Assembly: GCA_026396175.1 (NCBI GenBank)
Contig: JAPLXG010000012.1
Coordinates: forward strand, 19,360 to 83,359
Origin: Candidatus Moraniibacteriota bacterium
Lineage (GTDB): Bacteria; Patescibacteriota; Minisyncoccia; Moranbacterales; UBA2206
Direction: 5' to 3'
DNA: 64,000 nucleotides
The position numbers were made by a program, and so were the translations under genes. This document shows, piece by piece, positions 2,757-45,394 of the stretch. The notes beneath the pieces are model-generated. The model worked only from the letters and a program-made list of their open reading frames with translations, was not told the DNA's origin and made no database searches. Each line of letters opens with the position of its first letter. Positions within the stretch are counted from its first letter, which is position 1.

Positions 2757-2884
2757 TAGAATAATAGGGCGTGAAAATTCCTCTGAAGTAGCTCCTCGTA
2801 AAACCCGATAAATCGGATCACGGGGCAGGCAATGGGCTTAATACGCCGAAGTAGCTCAATGGCAGAGCAACTGTTTTGCGCCAG

Positions 2885-3035
2885 CCCCGCACTAATTTAA
2901 AAAATAAATAAATCGCCGTCCTAGCTCAATGGCAGAGCAACTGTTTTGTAAACAGTAGGTTATCAGTTCAACTCTGATGGACGGCTCATGAGTCTAGAAG
3001 TAATTTACTGGTGCACTTTTTAAATTAGTGCGGGG
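2885..3035. repeat. Perfect 14-bp inverted repeat (CCCCGCACTAATTT at 2885-2898 / AAATTAGTGCGGGG at 3022-3035) bracketing the embedded tRNA-Thr
   Basis: Exact reverse complements read directly from sequence. Confidence 0.8.
2915..2986 (+). tRNA. tRNA-Thr (anticodon UGU), intact
   Basis: Acceptor GCCGTCC/GGACGGC, D-arm TAGCTCAATGGCAGAGCA, anticodon stem ACTGT/ACAGT with loop TTTGTAA, T-arm ATCAG-TTCAACT-CTGAT; no encoded CCA. Confidence 0.8.
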
Positions 3036-3053
3036 TAAATAGGTTATCGGTTC

Positions 3054-3073
3054 CCTGCCTGCCGGTAGGCAGG
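3054..3073. repeat. 20-nt palindrome family member (CCTGCCTGCCGGTAGGCAGG) inserted in the T-loop of the disrupted outer tRNA-Thr
   Basis: Removing it restores a canonical 7-nt T-loop TTCAACT. Confidence 0.7.
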
Positions 3074-3096
3074 AACTCCGATCTTCGGCTCAAAAT

Positions 3097-3124
3097 CATG
3101 TAGCATATAACATGTAGCATATAA
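3097..3124. repeat. Tandem 14-mer direct repeat CATGTAGCATATAA x2, followed at 3148-3176 by a CATGTT-rich tract
   Basis: Exact tandem duplication; a related CATGTTTCATG...TTACATG tract recurs inside priA at 14201-14233. Confidence 0.6.
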
Positions 3125-3197
3125 CAGGACTCCTTAATGATTTTGTTACATGTTTCATGTTGCATGTTACATGCAGTGGGTCGGTGGCGGAGTGGTC

Positions 3198-3217
3198 CCT
3201 GCCTACTGGCAGGCAGG
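3198..3217. repeat. 20-nt palindrome family member (variant CCTGCCTACTGGCAGGCAGG) in the D-loop of the outer tRNA-Tyr copy
   Basis: Flanked by GGTC and AATCGCAGC, which are contiguous in the intact tRNA-Tyr. Confidence 0.65.
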
Positions 3218-3264
3218 AATCGCAGCTGACTGTAAATCAGCCGATTTCGGTCTACGGGCGCGCG

Positions 3265-3430
3265 TCCCTCACCAATTTCGAACATTTTAAAATTATTTAG
3301 GGCAGACAGGGATATGGGTCGGTGGCGGAGTGGTCAATCGCAGCTGACTGTAAATCAGCCGATTTCGGTCTACGGGGGTTCGAATCCCTCCCGGCCCACA
3401 AGGCTGTCCTAGTTCGAAATTGGTGAGGGA
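3265..3430. repeat. Perfect 19-bp inverted repeat (TCCCTCACCAATTTCGAAC at 3265-3283 / GTTCGAAATTGGTGAGGGA at 3412-3430) bracketing the intact tRNA-Tyr
   Basis: Exact reverse complements; the same architecture as at the tRNA-Thr locus. Confidence 0.8.
3316..3398 (+). tRNA. tRNA-Tyr (anticodon GUA), type II with long variable arm, intact
   Basis: Acceptor GGGTCGG/CCGGCCC (one G-U), anticodon stem GCTGA/TCAGC with loop CTGTAAA, long variable arm, T-arm GGGGG-TTCGAAT-CCCTC. Confidence 0.8.
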
Positions 3431-3461
3431 TGAAAATCCTTCCCGGCCCACATAATTTTAC

Positions 3462-3534
3462 GCCGTTGTAGCTCAGTCGGTAGAGCATTTCCATGGTAAG
3501 GAAAAGGTCCGCAGTTCGATTCTGCGCAACGGCT
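3462..3534 (+). tRNA. tRNA-Thr (anticodon GGU), intact
   Basis: Acceptor GCCGTTG/CAACGGC, anticodon stem TTTCC/GGAAA with loop ATGGTAA, T-arm CGCAG-TTCGATT-CTGCG. Confidence 0.8.
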
Positions 3535-3540
3535 CAGGCT

Positions 3541-3587
3541 AAAGGTCCCCTGCCTGCCGGCAGGCAGGGATTCCGGACAACGGCTCA
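3541..3587 (+). pseudogene. Partial duplicate of the tRNA-Thr(GGU) 3' portion; the 20-nt palindrome (3549-3568, perfect) replaces the 5' strand of the T-stem
   Basis: AAAGGTCC[CCTGCCTGCCGGCAGGCAGG]GATTCCGGACAACGGCTCA against the tRNA's AAAGGTCCGCAGTTCGATTCTGCGCAACGGCTCA. Confidence 0.55.
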
Positions 3588-3593
3588 TTATAA

Positions 3594-3660
3594 TTAGTAG
3601 CCAGTATCTAATATTTTGTATTTAGTATTTATACTAAATACCAGATACTAAATACCACAT
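3594..3660. repeat. GTATTTAGTAT-type imperfect palindromic repeat tract just upstream of rpmG
   Basis: CCAGTATCTAATATTTTGTATTTAGTATTTATACTAAATACCAGATACTAAATACC with 9-bp arms TATTTAGTA/TACTAAATA; the same short repeat recurs at 15371-15400, 22419-22443 and 14081-14134. Confidence 0.5.
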
Positions 3661-3668
3661 ACAAATAA

Positions 3669-3824
3669 ATGTCACGAGAAAATTTATCAAAGCTGAAATG
3701 TTTGGAATGTGCTAACATCAACTATTTCACCACCAGAAACAAGAAAAAGTTGAAAGAAAAATTGGAAATGAAAAAACATTGCCCAAAATGCAAAAAGCAC
3801 ACGATGCATAAGGAAATGAAATAG
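3669..3824 (+). CDS. rpmG: 50S ribosomal protein L33 (51 aa; under the ORF-track length cutoff)
   Basis: Manual translation [51 protein letters not shown]; two CxxC pairs typical of L33; rpmG-tRNA-Trp synteny. Confidence 0.8.
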
Positions 3825-3897
3825 GGAGTTGGTGAAATTATTCCGTCTTTGCGAACATGCGGGCTTTGCCCGCCGAAGTCCGCTGTGGCGGACATAG

Positions 3898-3968
3898 GCG
3901 GGTGTGGTGAAGTGGTATCACAACGGTCTCCAAAACCGTTATCCCAGGTCCGACTCCTGGCACCCGTG
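3898..3968 (+). tRNA. tRNA-Trp (anticodon CCA)
   Basis: Acceptor GCGGGTG/CACCCGT (G1-U72), D-stem GTGA/TCAC, anticodon stem ACGGT/ACCGT with loop CTCCAAA (as in E. coli tRNA-Trp), T-arm CCAGG-TCCGACT-CCTGG. Confidence 0.75.
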
Positions 3969-3980
3969 CATAGAAAAAAA

Positions 3981-4007
3981 CAAGACTCTCGAGTCTTGTT
4001 TTTGTTT
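3981..4007 (+). terminator. Rho-independent terminator after tRNA-Trp
   Basis: CAAGACTC-TCGA-GAGTCTTG hairpin followed by TTTTTGTTTG. Confidence 0.7.
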
Positions 4008-4046
4008 GCATTGGGATATATTTTTCAGTTTGACTTTAAAAAAATA

Positions 4047-4082
4047 GAAAAGGCATAGCGTGGGGGTTCGTTATGCCTTTTT
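4047..4082. terminator. Bidirectional hairpin terminator
   Basis: AAAAGGCATA...TATGCCTTTTT: 7-bp stem with an A-run on one side and a T-run on the other; lies between convergent transcription units. Confidence 0.5.
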
Positions 4083-4113
4083 GGATGCCCGGTTTTAGTT
4101 TAAACCGAGAACA

Positions 4114-4632
4114 TTAGAAAAGCTGTATTGGAGGCCGTGAAATTATATGCAGACCATTCTTGGCTATATATCCACGTAATGTTTGGCCGCAGTTTTGACA
4201 TTGATAGCCTAGTGTTGGGATTGGATCTCGAGGCGTTGCTTGGAACGCTTTTGCTATGATTACCGATTTACAGTGCCAGCAGTGGGTGGAATAATCTTTG
4301 TCGCTAAATTCCCATAAAATCCTTTCAAAGCTTTCGCGGGGGATTATTCTGCTGGCATTGGCCATGTAATAATAGACATGATGATTAACACATATAAACC
4401 ACATCATATCTTTTTGCCATTCGTAAGAATAGGCAAAGGCCACGGTGCGGCAAATCTGGCATGCAACTCCTGAATAAATAGCCAGTGGCATTGAGAGTAC
4501 CTCCTTTCCCGTAATAGGGAATGATAAAAATTGTCTATCATGTAAAAAATCGCGGCGTGCCAAAGAATGGCACAATAATCCGCGGAATTTCTTTGTAAAT
4601 GAACAAGCGTATGATAGCGTACTGTAGCGCAT
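4114..4632 (-). CDS. Hypothetical Cys/His-rich protein (possible zinc-binding or nuclease-like)
   Basis: 172-aa ORF with HCWHC and CQNCGQT motifs; no confident family assignment. Confidence 0.45.
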   Translation of the reverse strand: MRYSTLSYACSFTKKFRGLLCHSLARRDFLHDRQFLSFPITGKEVLSMPLAIYSGVACQICRTVAFAYSYEWQKDMMWFICVNHHVYYYMANASRIIPRESFERILWEFSDKDYSTHCWHCKSVIIAKAFQATPRDPIPTLGYQCQNCGQTLRGYIAKNGLHIISRPPIQLF

Positions 4633-4745
4633 AACCAGCGGGGAGTCAAGTGCATGAATTTTAAAAAATAACTGAATTTAAGACTGGCAAGAATTTCTTT
4701 CGAGTTCTATTTTATGGTATGATAAAATTGTAAAATCAATTCACT

Positions 4746-4988
4746 ATGTACTATCTTTATATCCTAAAATGCGCGGATAAAACGCTCTATACGGGGATTG
4801 CCACCGATCTTTCGCGTCGGGTTTTTGAACATAATAACAATAAGCTTGGTGCGAAATATACCGCCGCGCGCCGTCCGGTTAGGTTGGTCTATTTTCAGAA
4901 ATTTAAAAACCGCTCTCTTGCTTCCAAAGAAGAAGCGCGGATAAAAAAGTTGAAAAAAGCAGAGAAGCTAGAATTGATTGGGGGATAG
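4746..4988 (+). CDS. GIY-YIG nuclease family protein (UPF0213-like)
   Basis: MYYLYILKCADKTLYTGIATDLSRRVFEHN = canonical GIY...YIG...R...E...N motif order. Confidence 0.85.
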   Translation: MYYLYILKCADKTLYTGIATDLSRRVFEHNNNKLGAKYTAARRPVRLVYFQKFKNRSLASKEEARIKKLKKAEKLELIGG

Positions 4989-5067
4989 CGACTTGTTTGA
5001 ATTTCGCTATGTTGCGTTTGAAAAAAGTGTGGTATACTGAAAAGGTAAAATAAATAACTAAAAATTC

Positions 5068-5194
5068 ATCCCCCACCACTTTTTTGCTCGCATTTCGTGC
5101 GAAAGTGAAGTAGCCCTAGAAGCTATCGTCGGGAGAATGCTAGGATATAATTTCTAGCCAAAATAAATTCAAAAGCAAAAAAGTGGTGGGGGAT
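5068..5194. repeat. 127-bp unit bounded by a perfect 20-bp inverted repeat (ATCCCCCACCACTTTTTTGC / GCAAAAAAGTGGTGGGGGAT), ending 8 nt before the ATG at 5203
   Basis: Exact reverse complements at 5068-5087 and 5175-5194; the internal 87 nt contains further small hairpins and a TATAAT at 5146-5151. Confidence 0.5.
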
Positions 5195-10937: not shown

Positions 10938-11900
10938 TTATTTCAAAACACTTCCGATAAAGCTCGGGTTGCCGTTGATAAAGTCTGCAATCTTCAGATT
11001 ATTTTTTCCTTCCAGCTGGACCTCCTCCAAAAAAACAGTCCCAGCACCAGTTTGCACGGCAATTTTTTCACCGGATTGAAAAACCTCTCCCATAGAATAT
11101 TCTCCTTGCGAGGTCGTATTTCCGAGAGAAAGTTTATTGATTTTTAATCTAAGGTTTGATCCATTGCGTTGCCAATAGGTGAAGATTCCCGGCCAAGAAT
11201 AAAAGGCGCGATATTGATCATAAATTGAGCGCGCATCATCCAGCCAAATTACTTTTCCGTCACTTCTTTCAATCAACTGGCAAAGCGTGGCCGTCTCGTT
11301 AGATTGCTCTTGTGGAGTGATTTTTCTCTCCACCCAAAGCGTGATTGTCTCCAAGAGCAAGGGAACCGAAAGTCGCGCCAGCTTTTGCGAAAGCTCAACG
11401 TTGGTTTCGTCCGGTTCAATTTTAGTTTTTTTCTGACTAAGAATCGCGCCAGTATCAATGCCGGCGTCCATCAGCATAATAGTTACGCCAGTTTCTTTTT
11501 CGGAGTCCAGTAGGGCATTTTGAATCGGGGATGGTCCGCGGTAGCGGGGGAGAAGCGAGGCGTGGATGTTAATCGCACCGAAACCGGGCAGATCTAAAAC
11601 GGCCTTGGGCAGAATTTTTCCATAAGCTGCAACGATGAGCAGATCCGGTTTTTGATTTTTCAGTTCCGCGATTTCTGCTTCTCTAAATTTAGCAGGAGAA
11701 AAAACCGGAATCTTACTATTTTCAGCGGTGATTTTGACAGCCGTTTTTTGCAATGCTTGATCACGACCGACTTTTTTATCCGCCTGCGTATAGACGCTGA
11801 TCAAATTATATTTTTCAGCAATGAGCGCAGTGAGAATCGTGTCGGCAAAAGACGACGTACCCATAAAAACAACGCGCAGTTTGATGGATTTTTTTTGCAT
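10938..11900 (-). CDS. fmt: Methionyl-tRNA formyltransferase
   Basis: LRVVFMGTSSFA...NIHASLLPRYRGPSPIQ. Start placed at the internal Met (MQKKSIKLRVVFMG) rather than the upstream ORF-track start. Confidence 0.85.
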   Translation of the reverse strand: MQKKSIKLRVVFMGTSSFADTILTALIAEKYNLISVYTQADKKVGRDQALQKTAVKITAENSKIPVFSPAKFREAEIAELKNQKPDLLIVAAYGKILPKAVLDLPGFGAINIHASLLPRYRGPSPIQNALLDSEKETGVTIMLMDAGIDTGAILSQKKTKIEPDETNVELSQKLARLSVPLLLETITLWVERKITPQEQSNETATLCQLIERSDGKVIWLDDARSIYDQYRAFYSWPGIFTYWQRNGSNLRLKINKLSLGNTTSQGEYSMGEVFQSGEKIAVQTGAGTVFLEEVQLEGKNNLKIADFINGNPSFIGSVLK

Positions 11901-12532: not shown

Positions 12533-14581
12533 CTAAATAATTGAAATTGGATCAATATCGATGACCCAGCCGGTTGGCAAAGATTTGAGAATAATTAGAA
12601 TTTCCTTAGGCAGTTGCTTTTGAAATTTCAAAAGCATTTGTCGGCGATATCTTCCTCGAATTTTTGGCACAAAAGAGTCGGTCGGTACACTTATTTTTAA
12701 ATCAGCCTTTTCTTTAATTAAAAGATTATACACCCTGTCTGATTCCACTGCAACCCTTTTTTGATTATAATCCTCAAAGACCAGTTTAGCAATTTTTCCA
12801 AAAGGAGGATAGCCTAAAAGTTTTCGATCAGGTAATTCTTGCTCATAGAAAGCCGGGTAATTATTTTGAGCAATCAGTGTGAGAATTTTATTTTCCGGGT
12901 GATAGGTTTGGATAATGATTCGGCCAGGAAATTTCGCGCCAGGGCGAGATACGCGACCAGATAATTGGACTAGGTCCTGCCAGGCCTTTTCACTGACCCG
13001 AAAATCCGGGAGCGTGAGCATATTGTCAGCATCAATCACTCCAACTAGACTCATCTTTGGTAAATCCCAGCCCTTAGTGATCATTTGCGTGCCGATGAGG
13101 ATGTCAATTTCTCCGCGAGAAAATTTTTCATAGGCTGTTTTTTGGAAATCTTTTTCTTTGTTTGCGGTTGAATCTAGGCGCAAAATTCTCGCTCCTGGAA
13201 AAAAATCGCGCACCTCTTTTTCCACTTTTTGCGTTCCCAGACCAACATTGCGAAATTCAATCCCATGGCATTTTGAGCAATTGGGAATAGCGCTGGCAAC
13301 AAAAGCACAATGCGGACATTTATATTCTCTTGAATTAGTATAGATAAGAGCGCGGTCACAGAGTGGACATTTGAGCACAGTTTTGCAATTAGTACAGACG
13401 GAAAAATTACTCATTCCCTGGCGATTAATGAATAAAATAGATTGCAAGTTATTTTTCAGCGCGTAGGCAATTTCACTTTTTAGTTTTTTGCTGATGCAAG
13501 AATAATTTCTCGCCCAGCGTTCTTTTTTCATATCAACCAGCTCAATTGTGCTGCGTACTTTTTGGGTGGTGACATTTTTTGGATGATAGGAATCGCTCAG
13601 AGTCAATAATTTATATTGCTTATATTGAGTTTTAAAATAAGTTTCAATGCTCGGCGTAGCTGATCCGTGGATAAGTTTGCATTTATACAATTCGGACAAT
13701 TTTTCAGCGACAGTTCGGGCGTCATAGCGTGGGTTCATATCCCATTGCTTGAATGACATATCTTGTTCTTCATCAATCACGATCAAAGCTAATTTTTGAA
13801 ATGGCGCGAAAACAGACATCCTGGTACCAATAATAATTTTTGCTTCGCCTGATTTTATCTTTTGCCAATTTGTGAAATAGACACCCTTAGAAAGATTGCT
13901 GCTGAGAAGGGCAATTTCATTTTCAGGAAAATAGGCGCCATATCTTTCCAGCGCTTGCGGAGTCAAAGTTTTTTCCGGCACTAAAATCAAAAATTGACTT
14001 TGGGGATTTTGCTTTTTGAGTTCCAAGATGGAGTGAATGTAGACTTCTGTTTTGCCCGAACCCGCCGGACCATGGAGGAGGTATCTGGTATTTTGCCTGC
14101 CTGCCGGCGAGGCAGGTATTTGGTATCTGATATCTTGCTTTGCAATATTTTTCACTGTAGCTTCTTGTTCAGCTGTTAGAATTATTGTATTTATATTTTT
14201 TGTTTCATGTTTCATATTATATGTTACATGATCAGCGCTTCGCGATTTCGTTCTCTTAGGCACAAAATTCTTCAAAACTACCCCGAGCGAGATGACGTAA
14301 TAATCTGAAATATATTTTGCAAGGGCTAATTGCTCCTTTGTGAGAAAATTTGGCTCCAAAACTTTTTCAATTTTTTTGAGCGTAATTCCGCCAACGCGGG
14401 GAAAATCATTTTTACTTTCAATCACGATTCCTTCTACGGTTTTTCTGAAAAGGGGAATGCTGACTAGCGTTCCGACGGGCAATTTTTCATCAGCGAGATA
14501 ATAGAAAAACTGGTCACGAGAAAGAAGAATCCTGACAAGAGGAGTGATACTGAGGATGAATTGAGTCTGTTTTTTGTTCAT
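12533..14581 (-). CDS. priA: Primosomal protein N' (PriA helicase) carrying in-frame repeat-derived insertions
   Basis: Walker A GPAGSGKT, DEEQD box, Cys4 zinc-binding region (CTNCKTVLKCPLCD...CPHCAF...CSKCHG). The linker before Walker A contains DHVTYNMKHET and RYQIPASPAGRQNTRY encoded by dispersed repeats. Confidence 0.9.
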   Translation of the reverse strand: MNKKQTQFILSITPLVRILLSRDQFFYYLADEKLPVGTLVSIPLFRKTVEGIVIESKNDFPRVGGITLKKIEKVLEPNFLTKEQLALAKYISDYYVISLGVVLKNFVPKRTKSRSADHVTYNMKHETKNINTIILTAEQEATVKNIAKQDIRYQIPASPAGRQNTRYLLHGPAGSGKTEVYIHSILELKKQNPQSQFLILVPEKTLTPQALERYGAYFPENEIALLSSNLSKGVYFTNWQKIKSGEAKIIIGTRMSVFAPFQKLALIVIDEEQDMSFKQWDMNPRYDARTVAEKLSELYKCKLIHGSATPSIETYFKTQYKQYKLLTLSDSYHPKNVTTQKVRSTIELVDMKKERWARNYSCISKKLKSEIAYALKNNLQSILFINRQGMSNFSVCTNCKTVLKCPLCDRALIYTNSREYKCPHCAFVASAIPNCSKCHGIEFRNVGLGTQKVEKEVRDFFPGARILRLDSTANKEKDFQKTAYEKFSRGEIDILIGTQMITKGWDLPKMSLVGVIDADNMLTLPDFRVSEKAWQDLVQLSGRVSRPGAKFPGRIIIQTYHPENKILTLIAQNNYPAFYEQELPDRKLLGYPPFGKIAKLVFEDYNQKRVAVESDRVYNLLIKEKADLKISVPTDSFVPKIRGRYRRQMLLKFQKQLPKEILIILKSLPTGWVIDIDPISII
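14081..14134. repeat. 20-nt-palindrome family copy (CCTGCCTGCCGGCGAGGCAGG, 14096-14116) flanked by GTATCTGGTATTT/GTATTTGGTATCT repeats, lying in-frame inside priA
   Basis: The reverse strand translates as DIRYQIPASPAGRQNTRYL immediately N-terminal to the Walker A motif. Confidence 0.7.
14201..14233. repeat. CATGTT repeat tract (TGTTTCATGTTTCATATTATATGTTACATGATC) in-frame inside priA
   Basis: Encodes DHVTYNMKHET on the priA strand; a related tract lies at 3148-3176 next to the tRNA cluster. Confidence 0.55.
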
Positions 14582-14685: not shown

Positions 14686-14752
14686 GGACATTTAGCTCAG
14701 TCTTGCCCCTCACCATTTTTGGATCTGTAGCTCAGCTCGTCCCTCACTATTT
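14686..14752 (+). repeat. Two tandem tRNA-5'-end fragments (GGACATTTAGCTCAG, GGATCTGTAGCTCAG), each followed by a CCCTCAC(C/T)ATTT junction motif, directly upstream of tRNA-Val
   Basis: 15-nt fragments match the acceptor 5' strand + U8 A9 + D-stem start (GGNNNTNTAGCTCAG); the junction motif resembles TCCCTCACCAATTT at 3265. Confidence 0.55.
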
Positions 14753-14826
14753 GGGCATATAGCTCAGTTGGTTAGAGCGCTTCCTTCACACGGAAGAGGT
14801 CTCCCGTTCGAGTCGGGATATGCCTA
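14753..14826 (+). tRNA. tRNA-Val (anticodon CAC)
   Basis: Acceptor GGGCATA/TATGCCT (G1-U72), D-stem GCTC/GAGC, anticodon stem CTTCC/GGAAG with loop TTCACAC, T-arm TCCCG-TTCGAGT-CGGGA. Confidence 0.7.
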
Positions 14827-14828
14827 CT

Positions 14829-15371
14829 ATGAAACGAAAAATATATATTACTATCAATCTTGCCAGCCAAATCAGGCGCCGGCTCATAAAAAGCTGTGAG
14901 AAGTGGCGAGATTTGCCTGTGAAGTGGACTAAGGAGGAAAACTTGAACATCAGCCTGTTTTTTCTGGGCTATATCGACAATGACGTCGTGGCTGACGCTT
15001 GCCAAAAAGTGCGCGAAGCAGTCAGTGAAATTGAGCTTTTTGATCTGGAATTTGAAAAAATAATCCTTGCTCCAGACGTTGAAAATCCACAAGAATTTCG
15101 CGTAATCGGAAAATCAAGCGAAAAACTAAGAATCCTTTGCGAAGCGATTGAGAAAGAATTAGAAATTTTTGTCGCATCCAAAAAAGTTTTTTCTCCGCAT
15201 ATCACTTTGGGAAAAATCAGAAAAGAAAAGTGGGAAGAATTGAAAAACGTACCAGAAGTGAATGAAAAAGCTTCCTTCGCGGTCGGCGTCGAAGCGGTCG
15301 ACATTATGGCCAGCCACTTTGGTGAGGGGAAAAATAATTTTGTTTTGATTGAAAGTTGTCCGCTGAAATAG
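14829..15371 (+). CDS. 2H phosphoesterase family protein (LigT/ThpR-like RNA 2',3'-cyclic phosphodiesterase)
   Basis: HITLGK (H-x-T-x motif) and the overall size; the first motif is degenerate (NISLFFLG). Start moved to ATG 14829 to clear the tRNA. Confidence 0.55.
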   Translation: MKRKIYITINLASQIRRRLIKSCEKWRDLPVKWTKEENLNISLFFLGYIDNDVVADACQKVREAVSEIELFDLEFEKIILAPDVENPQEFRVIGKSSEKLRILCEAIEKELEIFVASKKVFSPHITLGKIRKEKWEELKNVPEVNEKASFAVGVEAVDIMASHFGEGKNNFVLIESCPLK

Positions 15372-15400
15372 TATGCGGTATTTAGTATTTGGTATCTTGT

Positions 15401-35233: not shown

Positions 35234-35360
35234 TATTTTTTTAAAAATGGGACGAATCAAGCTTTACCCCTTCACTAATTTTCTAGCTTCTAATAATACG
35301 CGAGCATTGCTTCCTACTACTGTTCTTCAAAATTAGCCCAAGCGCAGTTTAGTGGTGGGG

Positions 35361-45360: not shown

Positions 45361-45394
45361 TAATTCGCCTGCCTGCCGGCAGGCAGGTAATTCG
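45361..45394. mobile_element. 20-nt perfect palindrome CCTGCCTGCCGGCAGGCAGG (45368-45387) flanked by a perfect 7-bp direct repeat TAATTCG (target-site duplication)
   Basis: TAATTCG|CCTGCCTGCCGGCAGGCAGG|TAATTCG read directly. Confidence 0.7.

Follow-up and report, generated by a model that had tools for sequence, protein, structure and literature searches.

Candidate foldback elements carrying replacement tRNAs at disrupted tRNA genes of a Moraniibacteriota bacterium

How does a tRNA cluster come to hold intact genes that each stand inside or beside a broken copy of the same tRNA? This question is raised by a 64,000-nucleotide (nt) stretch of a contig of Candidatus Moraniibacteriota (JAPLXG010000012.1, positions 19,360 to 83,359), a member of the candidate phyla radiation (CPR) or Patescibacteria; we refer to the whole stretch as the window. 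The cluster lies among housekeeping genes, in the order rpsB-tsf-PSP1, a gene for a TPR protein, the tRNA cluster, rpmG and tRNA-Trp. ARAGORN and Rfam identified exactly three intact tRNAs between positions 2845 and 3587, Thr-UGU, Tyr-GUA and Thr-GGU, and, together with repeat analysis and dissection of the sequence string, they confirmed the original prediction for this locus that each of the three is accompanied by a broken copy. The intron and pseudogene modes of ARAGORN, which had been suggested as a check, yielded no credible additional tRNA in this region, only implausible calls on the opposite strand. Our analyses indicate that the arrangement was probably generated by miniature foldback elements that carry a tRNA as cargo and replace the cognate gene that they disrupt.

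We compared the window with 80 loci found with the neighboring PSP1 protein, one genome per species (1.28 Mb), in six of which this protein is 88 to 91% identical to that of the window. All comparisons were made with metagenome-assembled genomes (MAGs) and metagenome contigs, which are designated here by L numbers; an exact-protein look-up of the neighboring open reading frames (ORFs) returned only two short contigs. Deleting two inserted segments (cassettes 1 and 2; Table 1) and two copies of a 20-nt palindrome, called P, and leaving off the Thr-GGU stub with its own P gave a sequence that aligned end to end with L003, L004 and L007. The alignment includes the 86-nt Thr-Tyr spacer, which is kept by L007, and shows just two scars: 3 nt lost from the anticodon stem of Thr and damage to the T-arm of Tyr. 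Because removal of the inserts restores the plain cluster of the relatives, the outer copies are the original resident tRNA genes, now dead, and not introns. Insert-free states, which the original prediction had proposed to look for at orthologous loci, exist as empty sites in L003 to L007. The events are polymorphic among close relatives, with none in L004, L005 and L007, the Thr-GGU stub alone in L003 and L006, the Tyr nest alone in L002, and all three in the window.

The outer copies had been taken for tRNA derivatives, and identities of 34/34 to the relatives' Thr-UGU for the Thr 5′ part and of 61/61 to the inner gene for the Tyr 5′ part establish this. The Thr-UGU gene of L003 to L007 (acceptor stem GCCGAAG/CTTCGGC, T-stem ATCGG/CCGAT) is that of the window's outer copy, and the window's inner Thr-UGU is the other allele (GCCGTCC/GGACGGC, ATCAG/CTGAT). 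The break in the outer Thr gene had been placed after the 5′ strand of the anticodon stem, with resumption at the variable loop; it actually lies inside the anticodon, after G35, and the 3′ part restarts with TAAA, 3 nt (CAG) of the 3′ anticodon-stem strand being gone. For Tyr, inner and outer genes are the same allele both in the window, where the 5′ parts are identical apart from P, and in L002, where they show five differences. In the Thr-GGU stub, P occupies the site of the 5′ strand of the T-stem and of some of the loop; this remnant with its P is also present in L003 and L006, and an independent one of the kind is found in L013. Simple tandem duplication was considered for Thr and rejected, since the inner gene is a different allele from the outer one, the stem differences being compensatory, and since the flanking sequence is foreign and inverted.

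Table 1. Positions of the tRNA genes, their broken copies, the inserted segments and associated features of the window
Feature	Position	Strand	Evidence or remark
Outer tRNA-Thr-UGU, 5′ part (D-arm, anticodon stem, last base G35 of anticodon)	2845-2878	+	34/34 identical to intact Thr-UGU of relatives L002-L011
Cassette 1, 157 nt: linker CGCCAG, 5′ arm 2885-2903, tRNA-Thr-UGU 2915-2986, 3′ arm 3017-3035	2879-3035	+	Not in L003-L007; 19-bp perfect inverted repeat
Intact tRNA-Thr-UGU	2915-2986	+	68.1 bits
Outer tRNA-Thr-UGU, 3′ part (TAAA, variable loop, T-arm, acceptor; P in T-loop)	3036-3091	+	Insert-free window aligned to L003, L004, L007
P in outer Thr T-loop (clean insertion)	3054-3073		
Ancestral Thr-Tyr spacer, AT-rich word-repeat hairpin, outside the inserts	3092-3177	+	Same spacer between intact Thr and Tyr of L007
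Outer tRNA-Tyr, 5′ part to T-stem (P in D-loop)	3178-3258	+	20 + 41 nt 100% identical to inner gene; same structure in L002
P in outer Tyr D-loop (clean insertion)	3198-3217		
Cassette 2, 172 nt: linker CGCGCG, 5′ arm 3265-3283, inner 8-bp stem, tRNA-Tyr-GUA 3316-3398, 3′ arm 3412-3430	3259-3430	+	Not in L003-L007, in L002; 19-bp perfect inverted repeat
Intact tRNA-Tyr-GUA	3316-3398	+	ARAGORN + Rfam
Outer tRNA-Tyr, 3′ remnant (damaged T-loop and 3′ acceptor strand)	3431-3452	+	17/18 identical to inner 3′ end
Intact tRNA-Thr-GGU, allele 1 (T-stem CGCAG/CTGCG)	3462-3534	+	69.1 bits; allele 1 also plain gene in L055
Dead Thr-GGU 3′ remnant, allele 2 (T-stem TCCGG/CCGGA)	3540-3587	+	Allele 2 intact in L002, L004, L007, L008
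P in Thr-GGU stub T-arm	3549-3568		
Stand-alone GIY-YIG nuclease ORF (UPF0213 type)	4746-4988	+	Pfam PF01541, E=1e-15; PDB relatives 1ywl, 1zg2
21-nt P variant CCTGCCTGCCGGCGAGGCAGG, in frame in priA (ORF 12533-14581, −)	14096-14116		Encodes PASPAGR just before Walker A GPAGSGKT
Two 16-nt tRNA-Val 5′ fragments, each followed by an arm of the cassette family: CTTG-CCCCTCACCATTTTT, TCG-TCCCTCACTATTT	14686-14752	+	Sequence reading and motif scan
Solitary intergenic P, between 7-nt direct repeats TAATTCG	45368-45387		19 nt upstream of family-2 glycosyltransferase ORF

The two inserted segments share one layout, linker-arm-spacer-tRNA-spacer-arm, in which the non-tRNA sequence of cassette 1 amounts to 36 + 49 nt (85 nt). 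The inverted repeats are perfect, as the original prediction had it; the first is 19 bp long (2885-2903/3017-3035), not 14 bp, and the second has the 19 bp given there. A motif scan detected a common arm core, (Y)CCC(C)[G/T]CAC[C/T]A/T[A/G]GTG[C/A](G)GGG(R), at four places next to tRNAs in the window, one each for the Thr and Tyr cassettes and two before tRNA-Val; a further occurrence lies at 35268. Among 214 tRNAs of the relatives, the longest exact inverted repeat flanking the gene had a median length of 6 nt and, arms of this family aside, a maximum of 9 nt. Outside their core the arms vary between copies yet stay complementary, in stems of 14 to 22 bp that are mostly Watson-Crick paired, and a comparison of the window with L002 reveals compensatory changes in the 8-bp stem inside the Tyr cassette. 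When the bracketed segments were folded, as had been suggested, the region was predicted to adopt a nested, Russian-doll structure in which outer acceptor stems, arms and inner cloverleaf are all paired (z = −6.5 and −6.1). The cassettes have several features of foldback elements and miniature inverted-repeat transposable elements (MITEs): terminal inverted repeats, a small size (157 and 172 nt) without any ORF, dispersal in several copies, and polymorphic presence among relatives. They have no target-site duplication at the junctions, and no transposase was found in the window.

The two Val fragments with their arms lie directly upstream of an intact tRNA-Val (14753-14826). An ORF for an RNA 2′,3′-cyclic phosphodiesterase (LigT/ThpR; TIGR02258, E=9e-23) begins inside the 3′ end of this tRNA (region 14686-15371), and a possible matching 3′ arm, TTTGGTGAGGGG, is present at 15318-15329, near the end of that ORF.

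The same architecture recurs in the relatives. At least 14 of their 63 Thr-UGU genes are nested, a lower bound obtained from motif searches and reading. Eleven are split right after ..TTTG, between anticodon positions 35 and 36, irrespective of the arm family, and three further ones are split in the D-arm, with CCTGCCCGCC../..GGCAGGCGGG arms. Cassettes of the form CCCCGCAC..tRNA-Thr..GTGCGGGG lie inside a dead Thr gene in L029, L045, L049 and L055, and L027 has a homologous Thr cassette. The junctions TTTTG-CGCCAG and GGGG-TAAATAGG are both found in L055 and L045 (the outer 5′ half of the latter being degenerate), the 3′ junction GGGG-TAAATAGG alone is found in L049 and L027, and L029 deviates at both. 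Identical junctions occur in genomes whose neighboring protein is just 56 to 64% identical. The inner Thr alleles of these homologous cassettes vary (GCCACCC, GCCGAGA, GCCAGCG, GCCGAAG). The Thr nest of L049 has three layers, and L027 is the exact reciprocal of the window, with an inner GCCGAAG gene in a dead GCCGTCC gene. In other genomes, the outer copies have mostly decayed where they meet the insert. As read from sequence, the comparison shows resident genes split at defined loop positions by short hairpin-armed DNA with a full replacement tRNA, repeatedly, serially and reciprocally within the phylum. The recurrence of architecture, break points and arm motifs in many genomes and at several tRNA species bears out the earlier view of a specific mechanism rather than random decay.

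The arms are not confined to tRNA genes. They enclose non-tRNA sequence in intergenic DNA of L017, L019 and L020 (110 nt) and of L049 (a 19-bp stem with a 27-nt loop), and a 96-nt cassette-arm hairpin (TCCCTCACCACTTT..AAAGTGGTGAGGGA) lies at L062 16836-16931, in frame (32 codons) inside an ORF resembling a class I aminoacyl-tRNA synthetase. Other GC-rich hairpins occupy loops of dead tRNA pieces in L013, L024, L045, L055, L072 and L076. Hairpin-only inserts (L024, L013) and tRNA-carrying arms (L033, L063, L076) have arm sequences and a D-arm site in common. As the arms also enclose non-tRNA DNA, and as the plain tRNAs of L003 to L007 lack them, they constitute a foldback, MITE-like element family in its own right and are not tRNA processing stems.

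We also looked for tRNAs that exist solely in hairpin-interrupted form. Rescanning of 14,192 single-deletion edits with ARAGORN, which covered single inserts, gave trivial junction artifacts only. An apparently sole tRNA-Thr-GGU of L013 (5740-6030) and of L021 (8850-9130) is split after GGTAA by a conserved insert of ~215 nt, with a LAGLIDADG-like ORF just upstream; this intron-like insert had no Rfam group I intron match, even at E ≤ 10.

P, the GC-rich palindrome CCTGCCTGCCGGNAGGCAGG, is present once in each of the three broken tRNA copies and in none of the intact ones; a search of shuffled sequence gave 0 matches. The original prediction, which saw P in every disrupted copy and in no intact one, holds for the tRNAs of the window. 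It does not hold if P is meant as a tRNA-specific mark, as the copies at 45368-45387 and in priA illustrate. The priA variant is bordered by AGATACC/AAATACC word repeats and has a length divisible by three, which the usual 20 nt are not. Beyond the window, P is present in 12 of the 80 related loci, and the exact 20-mer CCTGCCTGCCGGCAGGCAGG was found in at least 120 metagenome stretches (L082 to L201) and 35 viral stretches (L202 to L236), on contigs of 29 to 71% GC, with up to six P copies per viral contig. Most copies are solitary and intergenic, frequently between short direct word repeats; direct repeats of at least 8 nt are enriched in the flanks (13% versus 3%). About 8% of the sites lie in tRNA-like sequence, all of them in or at the edge of a loop (GGTAGA-P-GCA, GGTA-P-GAGC, GGTTC-P-AA), and a viral tRNA-Met that is still callable has P in its variable loop (L226). 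P is a separate, extremely widespread mini-element and not a mark specific to tRNAs. Selection can account for its restriction to dead copies, since no cell would survive an insertion into its only live copy of a tRNA.

Target-site duplications of at least 7 nt next to P were found at 9 of 181 sites (control, 10 of 3618), and are thus not general. A location of P at the top of a larger hairpin was unsupported genome-wide, inverted-repeat enrichment being marginal (Mann-Whitney p = 0.16). Y1_Tnp, the domain of RAYT (transposases associated with repetitive extragenic palindromic [REP] sequences), was detected neither in the window nor next to the multi-copy P loci L141 and L208, near which the search for a transposase returned just FtsK and a phage tail tube protein. 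The sequence of P was not found in the published literature searched.

Nuclease genes are concentrated at the tRNA cluster of the relatives. Of 29 GIY-YIG- or LAGLIDADG-like ORFs in their 1.28 Mb, 26 fall within the span of the Thr/Tyr/Thr/Trp cluster, which accounts for 5.7% of the bases (binomial P value, 1e-29). In L065, L053 and L047, a different hairpin splits Tyr at 34/35, and the two halves enclose a GIY-YIG ORF and an intact tRNA-Tyr; in these loci, as in L125, L154, L180 and L233, a nuclease ORF is beside or inside the mobile segment. Unrelated contigs show the layout [tRNA-X 5′ part with P in the D-loop]-[GIY-YIG ORF of ~80 aa]-[intact tRNA-X] with Asn, Lys or Leu as X, and with Arg on the opposite strand. 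The Ser version begins with the ORF, and one viral contig carries the fragment, P and the ORF. These P-bearing contigs of the same layout (one of them viral) carry no taxon assignment. The GIY-YIG ORF of the window belongs to a highly conserved subfamily of more than 1,600 homologues, the best 120 of which are 76 to 100% identical, with identities of 76 to 90% in many CPR MAGs. The three contexts sampled for this subfamily were without tRNAs, and we did not count the ORF as a driver.

These observations can be combined in a model. Of the three candidate origins put forward in the original prediction, the best fit is a miniature mobile element that brings a tRNA with it and enters the gene cognate to that tRNA, and an intron-like arrangement is unsupported for the window. 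At Thr-UGU and Tyr, the cassette would split an essential single-copy gene and supply a tRNA of the same specificity, destruction and replacement thereby occurring in one step. At Thr-GGU, the 3′ third of the gene would have been swapped for the matching part of the other allele, the old T-arm and acceptor end remaining as a stub. The dead pieces would then acquire P in their remaining D- or T-loops. For the enzyme and the route of movement, we infer a homing-like process by which cassettes may spread between lineages: once a conserved tRNA gene has suffered a double-strand break, a donor with a cassette would serve as the repair template, its outer tRNA halves providing the homology. Conservation of these halves is too high for conversion tracts to show in them. 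The breaks may be made by tRNA-gene-directed nucleases of the GIY-YIG or LAGLIDADG type, acting in trans in the genome of the window, whose cassettes would be nuclease-less passengers mobilized in trans. Inner and outer copies may also recombine or undergo gene conversion, which would give the partial forms (the Val 5′ fragments with arm and the Thr-GGU stub) and homogenize the Tyr copies. More speculatively, P cuts the Tyr homology into 20 + 41 nt and could guard the duplication from deletion.

Several points weigh against this model. Inner tRNA and resident gene agree in anticodon arm, D-arm and T-loop, and a nuclease directed at such motifs is expected to cut the replacement too. The inner Tyr gene is the same allele as the outer one in the window and L002, and the model therefore needs gene conversion, or a mechanism that copies the resident gene. 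The sole GIY-YIG ORF of the window is outside the tRNA cluster, 0.8 kb downstream of tRNA-Trp, and no tRNA was found near its close homologues in the three contexts sampled. Among the 68 ORFs of the window, none matched a transposase, integrase, resolvase, reverse transcriptase or RAYT. Neither cassette junction has a target-site duplication, making a classical transposase acting on terminal inverted repeats unlikely. As to P, no consistent target sequence emerged genome-wide, and the presence of P in every dead piece is explained by targeting and selection alone.

A bolder proposal, which we regard as rather doubtful and put forward tentatively, is that CPR bacteria harbor a distinct class of selfish element, nuclease-driven and self-rescuing "tRNA replacement cassettes" that cause a serial, gene-drive-like turnover of alleles. 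Each cassette would inactivate an essential, highly conserved tRNA gene at a fixed position in a loop and at once supply a variant of it, and the Russian-doll nests and reciprocal replacements would be the visible outcome. P would in that case be an ultra-small companion element, pan-bacterial and also of phages, aimed at the D- and T-loops of tRNAs; it could disable leftover nuclease sites or break the homology between dead and live copies. The host might favor such allele turnover as an escape from tRNA-targeting toxins.

Other origins of the nested layout account for parts of the evidence. One is that the locus bears recombination scars without any dedicated element, left by DNA uptake with tRNA genes as homology anchors and by homology-facilitated illegitimate recombination between diverged alleles, hairpin repeats having gathered there by chance. 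The Thr-GGU case fits this well: an 8-nt repeat (AAAGGTCC; AAAGGTC if the C belongs to P) marks the point where the 3′ third of allele 1 meets the old allele-2 end behind it, and both alleles are plain genes in relatives. The arm-less tandem partial copies of L002 (11668-11815, described below) and the identity of the inner and outer Tyr alleles are also in its favor. Such scars would nevertheless leave unexplained the perfect 19-bp arms with a common core at three tRNA species, the identical junctions in genomes as distant as those cited above, the constant 35/36 break, and the same arms away from tRNAs, and we consider this explanation unlikely. The anticodon loop and the T-loop are the classical crossover sublocations of tRNA-targeting integrases, and the broken copies might instead be attachment-site duplications of integrative elements whose bodies were later deleted. 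Partial 3′ duplicates are a signature of such elements, the breaks lie at these sublocations, and an archaeal tRNA-Thr(GGU) has a 5′ fragment parted from the gene by a recombinase-bearing element (PMC3293823). That remnants of this kind explain the locus is nonetheless improbable: no integrase is encoded among the 68 ORFs, a whole tRNA with its own leader and trailer has been inserted with no seamless fusion of a host 5′ to an element 3′ part, the two junctions share no core repeat, and the arms are inverted, not direct.

An intron-like or processing arrangement, in which the outer halves are joined into a second tRNA or the arms are RNase III-type stems that release the inner one, agrees with the predicted Russian-doll fold and with the compensatory and G-U changes in the arms and inner stem. 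The 35/36 break is moreover the unusual group I intron site reported for Patescibacteria tRNAs (PMC13011429), the outer Thr of L024 becomes a perfect tRNA once its two inserts are taken out, and ARAGORN still calls a hypothetical spliced outer Thr of the window. The latter, however, carries the 3-nt deletion, which leaves a 2-nt variable region and a mismatched anticodon stem; the spliced outer Tyr gives no tRNA call, and the third copy is just a 3′ stub. Close relatives have plain genes without arms, most outer copies elsewhere have decayed at the junction, and the arms also occur in ORFs and in intergenic DNA without any RNA gene. A group I intron would require a U at the end of the 5′ exon (..TTTTG), which ends in G, and the 85 nt of non-tRNA insert cannot accommodate a group I core, introns of this class usually measuring 200 nt or more. 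Rfam returned three tRNAs only and no intron, both at its gathering threshold and at E ≤ 10; this is a weak argument, since it also misses the insert of L013 and L021. As for an archaeal bulge-helix-bulge intron, for which no dedicated scan was made, the exons do not rebuild functional tRNAs and the locus is bacterial (rpmG, tsf, PSP1). We hold it very improbable that the nests work as introns or processing units. Finally, strain variants of the cluster might have been stitched together in assembly, given that the source is MAG-like and that tRNA repeats break de Bruijn assemblies, as seen in an independent Logan contig that begins inside the duplicated Tyr sequence and in an N-gap within a Thr gene of L008. 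This is hardly credible, as that Logan contig is 100% identical to the window over 3347-5090, the arms and linkers are unique sequence and not strain variants, and nested layouts occur in independent MAGs of other studies, with point differences consistent with descent.

How does the proposed element, a tRNA-carrying foldback cassette, relate to known systems? Intronless homing offers one parallel. SegB of T4, a GIY-YIG homing endonuclease encoded in a cluster of tRNA genes, recognizes a site of which the conserved T-loop motif is a part (PMC2330249). Here as there, nuclease genes stand among tRNA genes and a conserved tRNA motif would be the target (the T-stem-loop for SegB), and in relatives GIY-YIG ORFs lie by the replacement tRNA, inside or beside the dead one. 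Unlike SegB-type systems, the cassettes of the window have hairpin arms and no nuclease gene, they leave the target as two dead halves around a complete replacement, and they occur in cellular CPR bacteria, not in phage co-infection. With integrative elements that restore the tRNA they enter, and with the tRNA disruption described in Caldiarchaeum (PMC3293823), the cassettes have in common a tRNA target, a break in the anticodon loop or T-loop, partial copies left behind, and function kept by element-borne sequence. They differ in that a whole tRNA with its own flanks is supplied in place of a carried 3′ segment fused in register, in having no integrase, in measuring 157 to 172 nt versus kilobases, and in having inverted rather than direct ends. 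The group I introns of Patescibacteria (PMC13011429) share the phylum, the anticodon-loop position and a homing-type biology; in contrast, the cassettes have no ribozyme core, their 5′ "exon" ends in G and no sound tRNA is rebuilt, the insert holds another tRNA, and the gene of the relatives is uninterrupted.

The remaining parallel is with short repeats. MITEs, foldback elements and REP-like palindromic elements include the Rickettsia palindromic elements, which insert in frame into genes, and GC-rich hairpin clusters are a feature of organelle rRNA and tRNA regions. The cassettes and P resemble them in being short, non-coding, polymorphic and present in many copies, in having terminal inverted repeats, and in that in-frame copies within genes are tolerated (L062, priA). 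The dissimilarities are the lack of a target-site duplication, a cargo that is a functional tRNA matched to the disrupted target and, for P, a length of just 20 nt yet an identical sequence across contigs of widely differing GC content. We rate the cassettes as self-restoring mobile DNA at tRNA genes that lacks at least one defining feature of each of homing systems, integrative elements and MITEs. Our literature searches turned up no account of nested tRNA genes, of replacement cassettes with hairpin arms or, for Patescibacteria, of cassettes that combine GIY-YIG ORFs with tRNAs.

Few sequences of any genome are as conserved and essential as tRNA genes, of which CPR bacteria usually have a single copy each. 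If the model is correct, safe invasion of an essential gene by means of a carried replacement would represent a new solution to a problem met otherwise by introns, inteins and tRNA-restoring integrases. It would account for odd fragments and missing genes seen by tRNA predictors in Patescibacteria MAGs and offer a handle on horizontal exchange between uncultured lineages, and it would suggest that acceptor- and T-stem alleles of tRNAs change by replacement rather than by point mutation. P is an unexplained and easily searchable marker, worth study in its own right.

Some further features of these loci were noted. In L002, two tandem 74-nt units (11668-11815), each a decayed 5′ part of tRNA-Thr-UGU with spacer, abut the intact gene upstream, without arms and without the palindrome. 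AT-rich hairpins made of tandem short words lie in the window at 3092-3177 (CATGTAGCATATAA twice, then TGTTACATG..) and 3588-3666 (GTATTTAGTAT..ATACTAAATAC); similar short words are found at 15370-15400 and on the flanks of the P variant in priA. Between tRNA-Trp and the GIY-YIG ORF, an ORF of 172 aa rich in Cys and His (4114-4632, − strand) had no Pfam or NCBIfam match and no relative among the 80 loci, and the stretch around it is variable among relatives.

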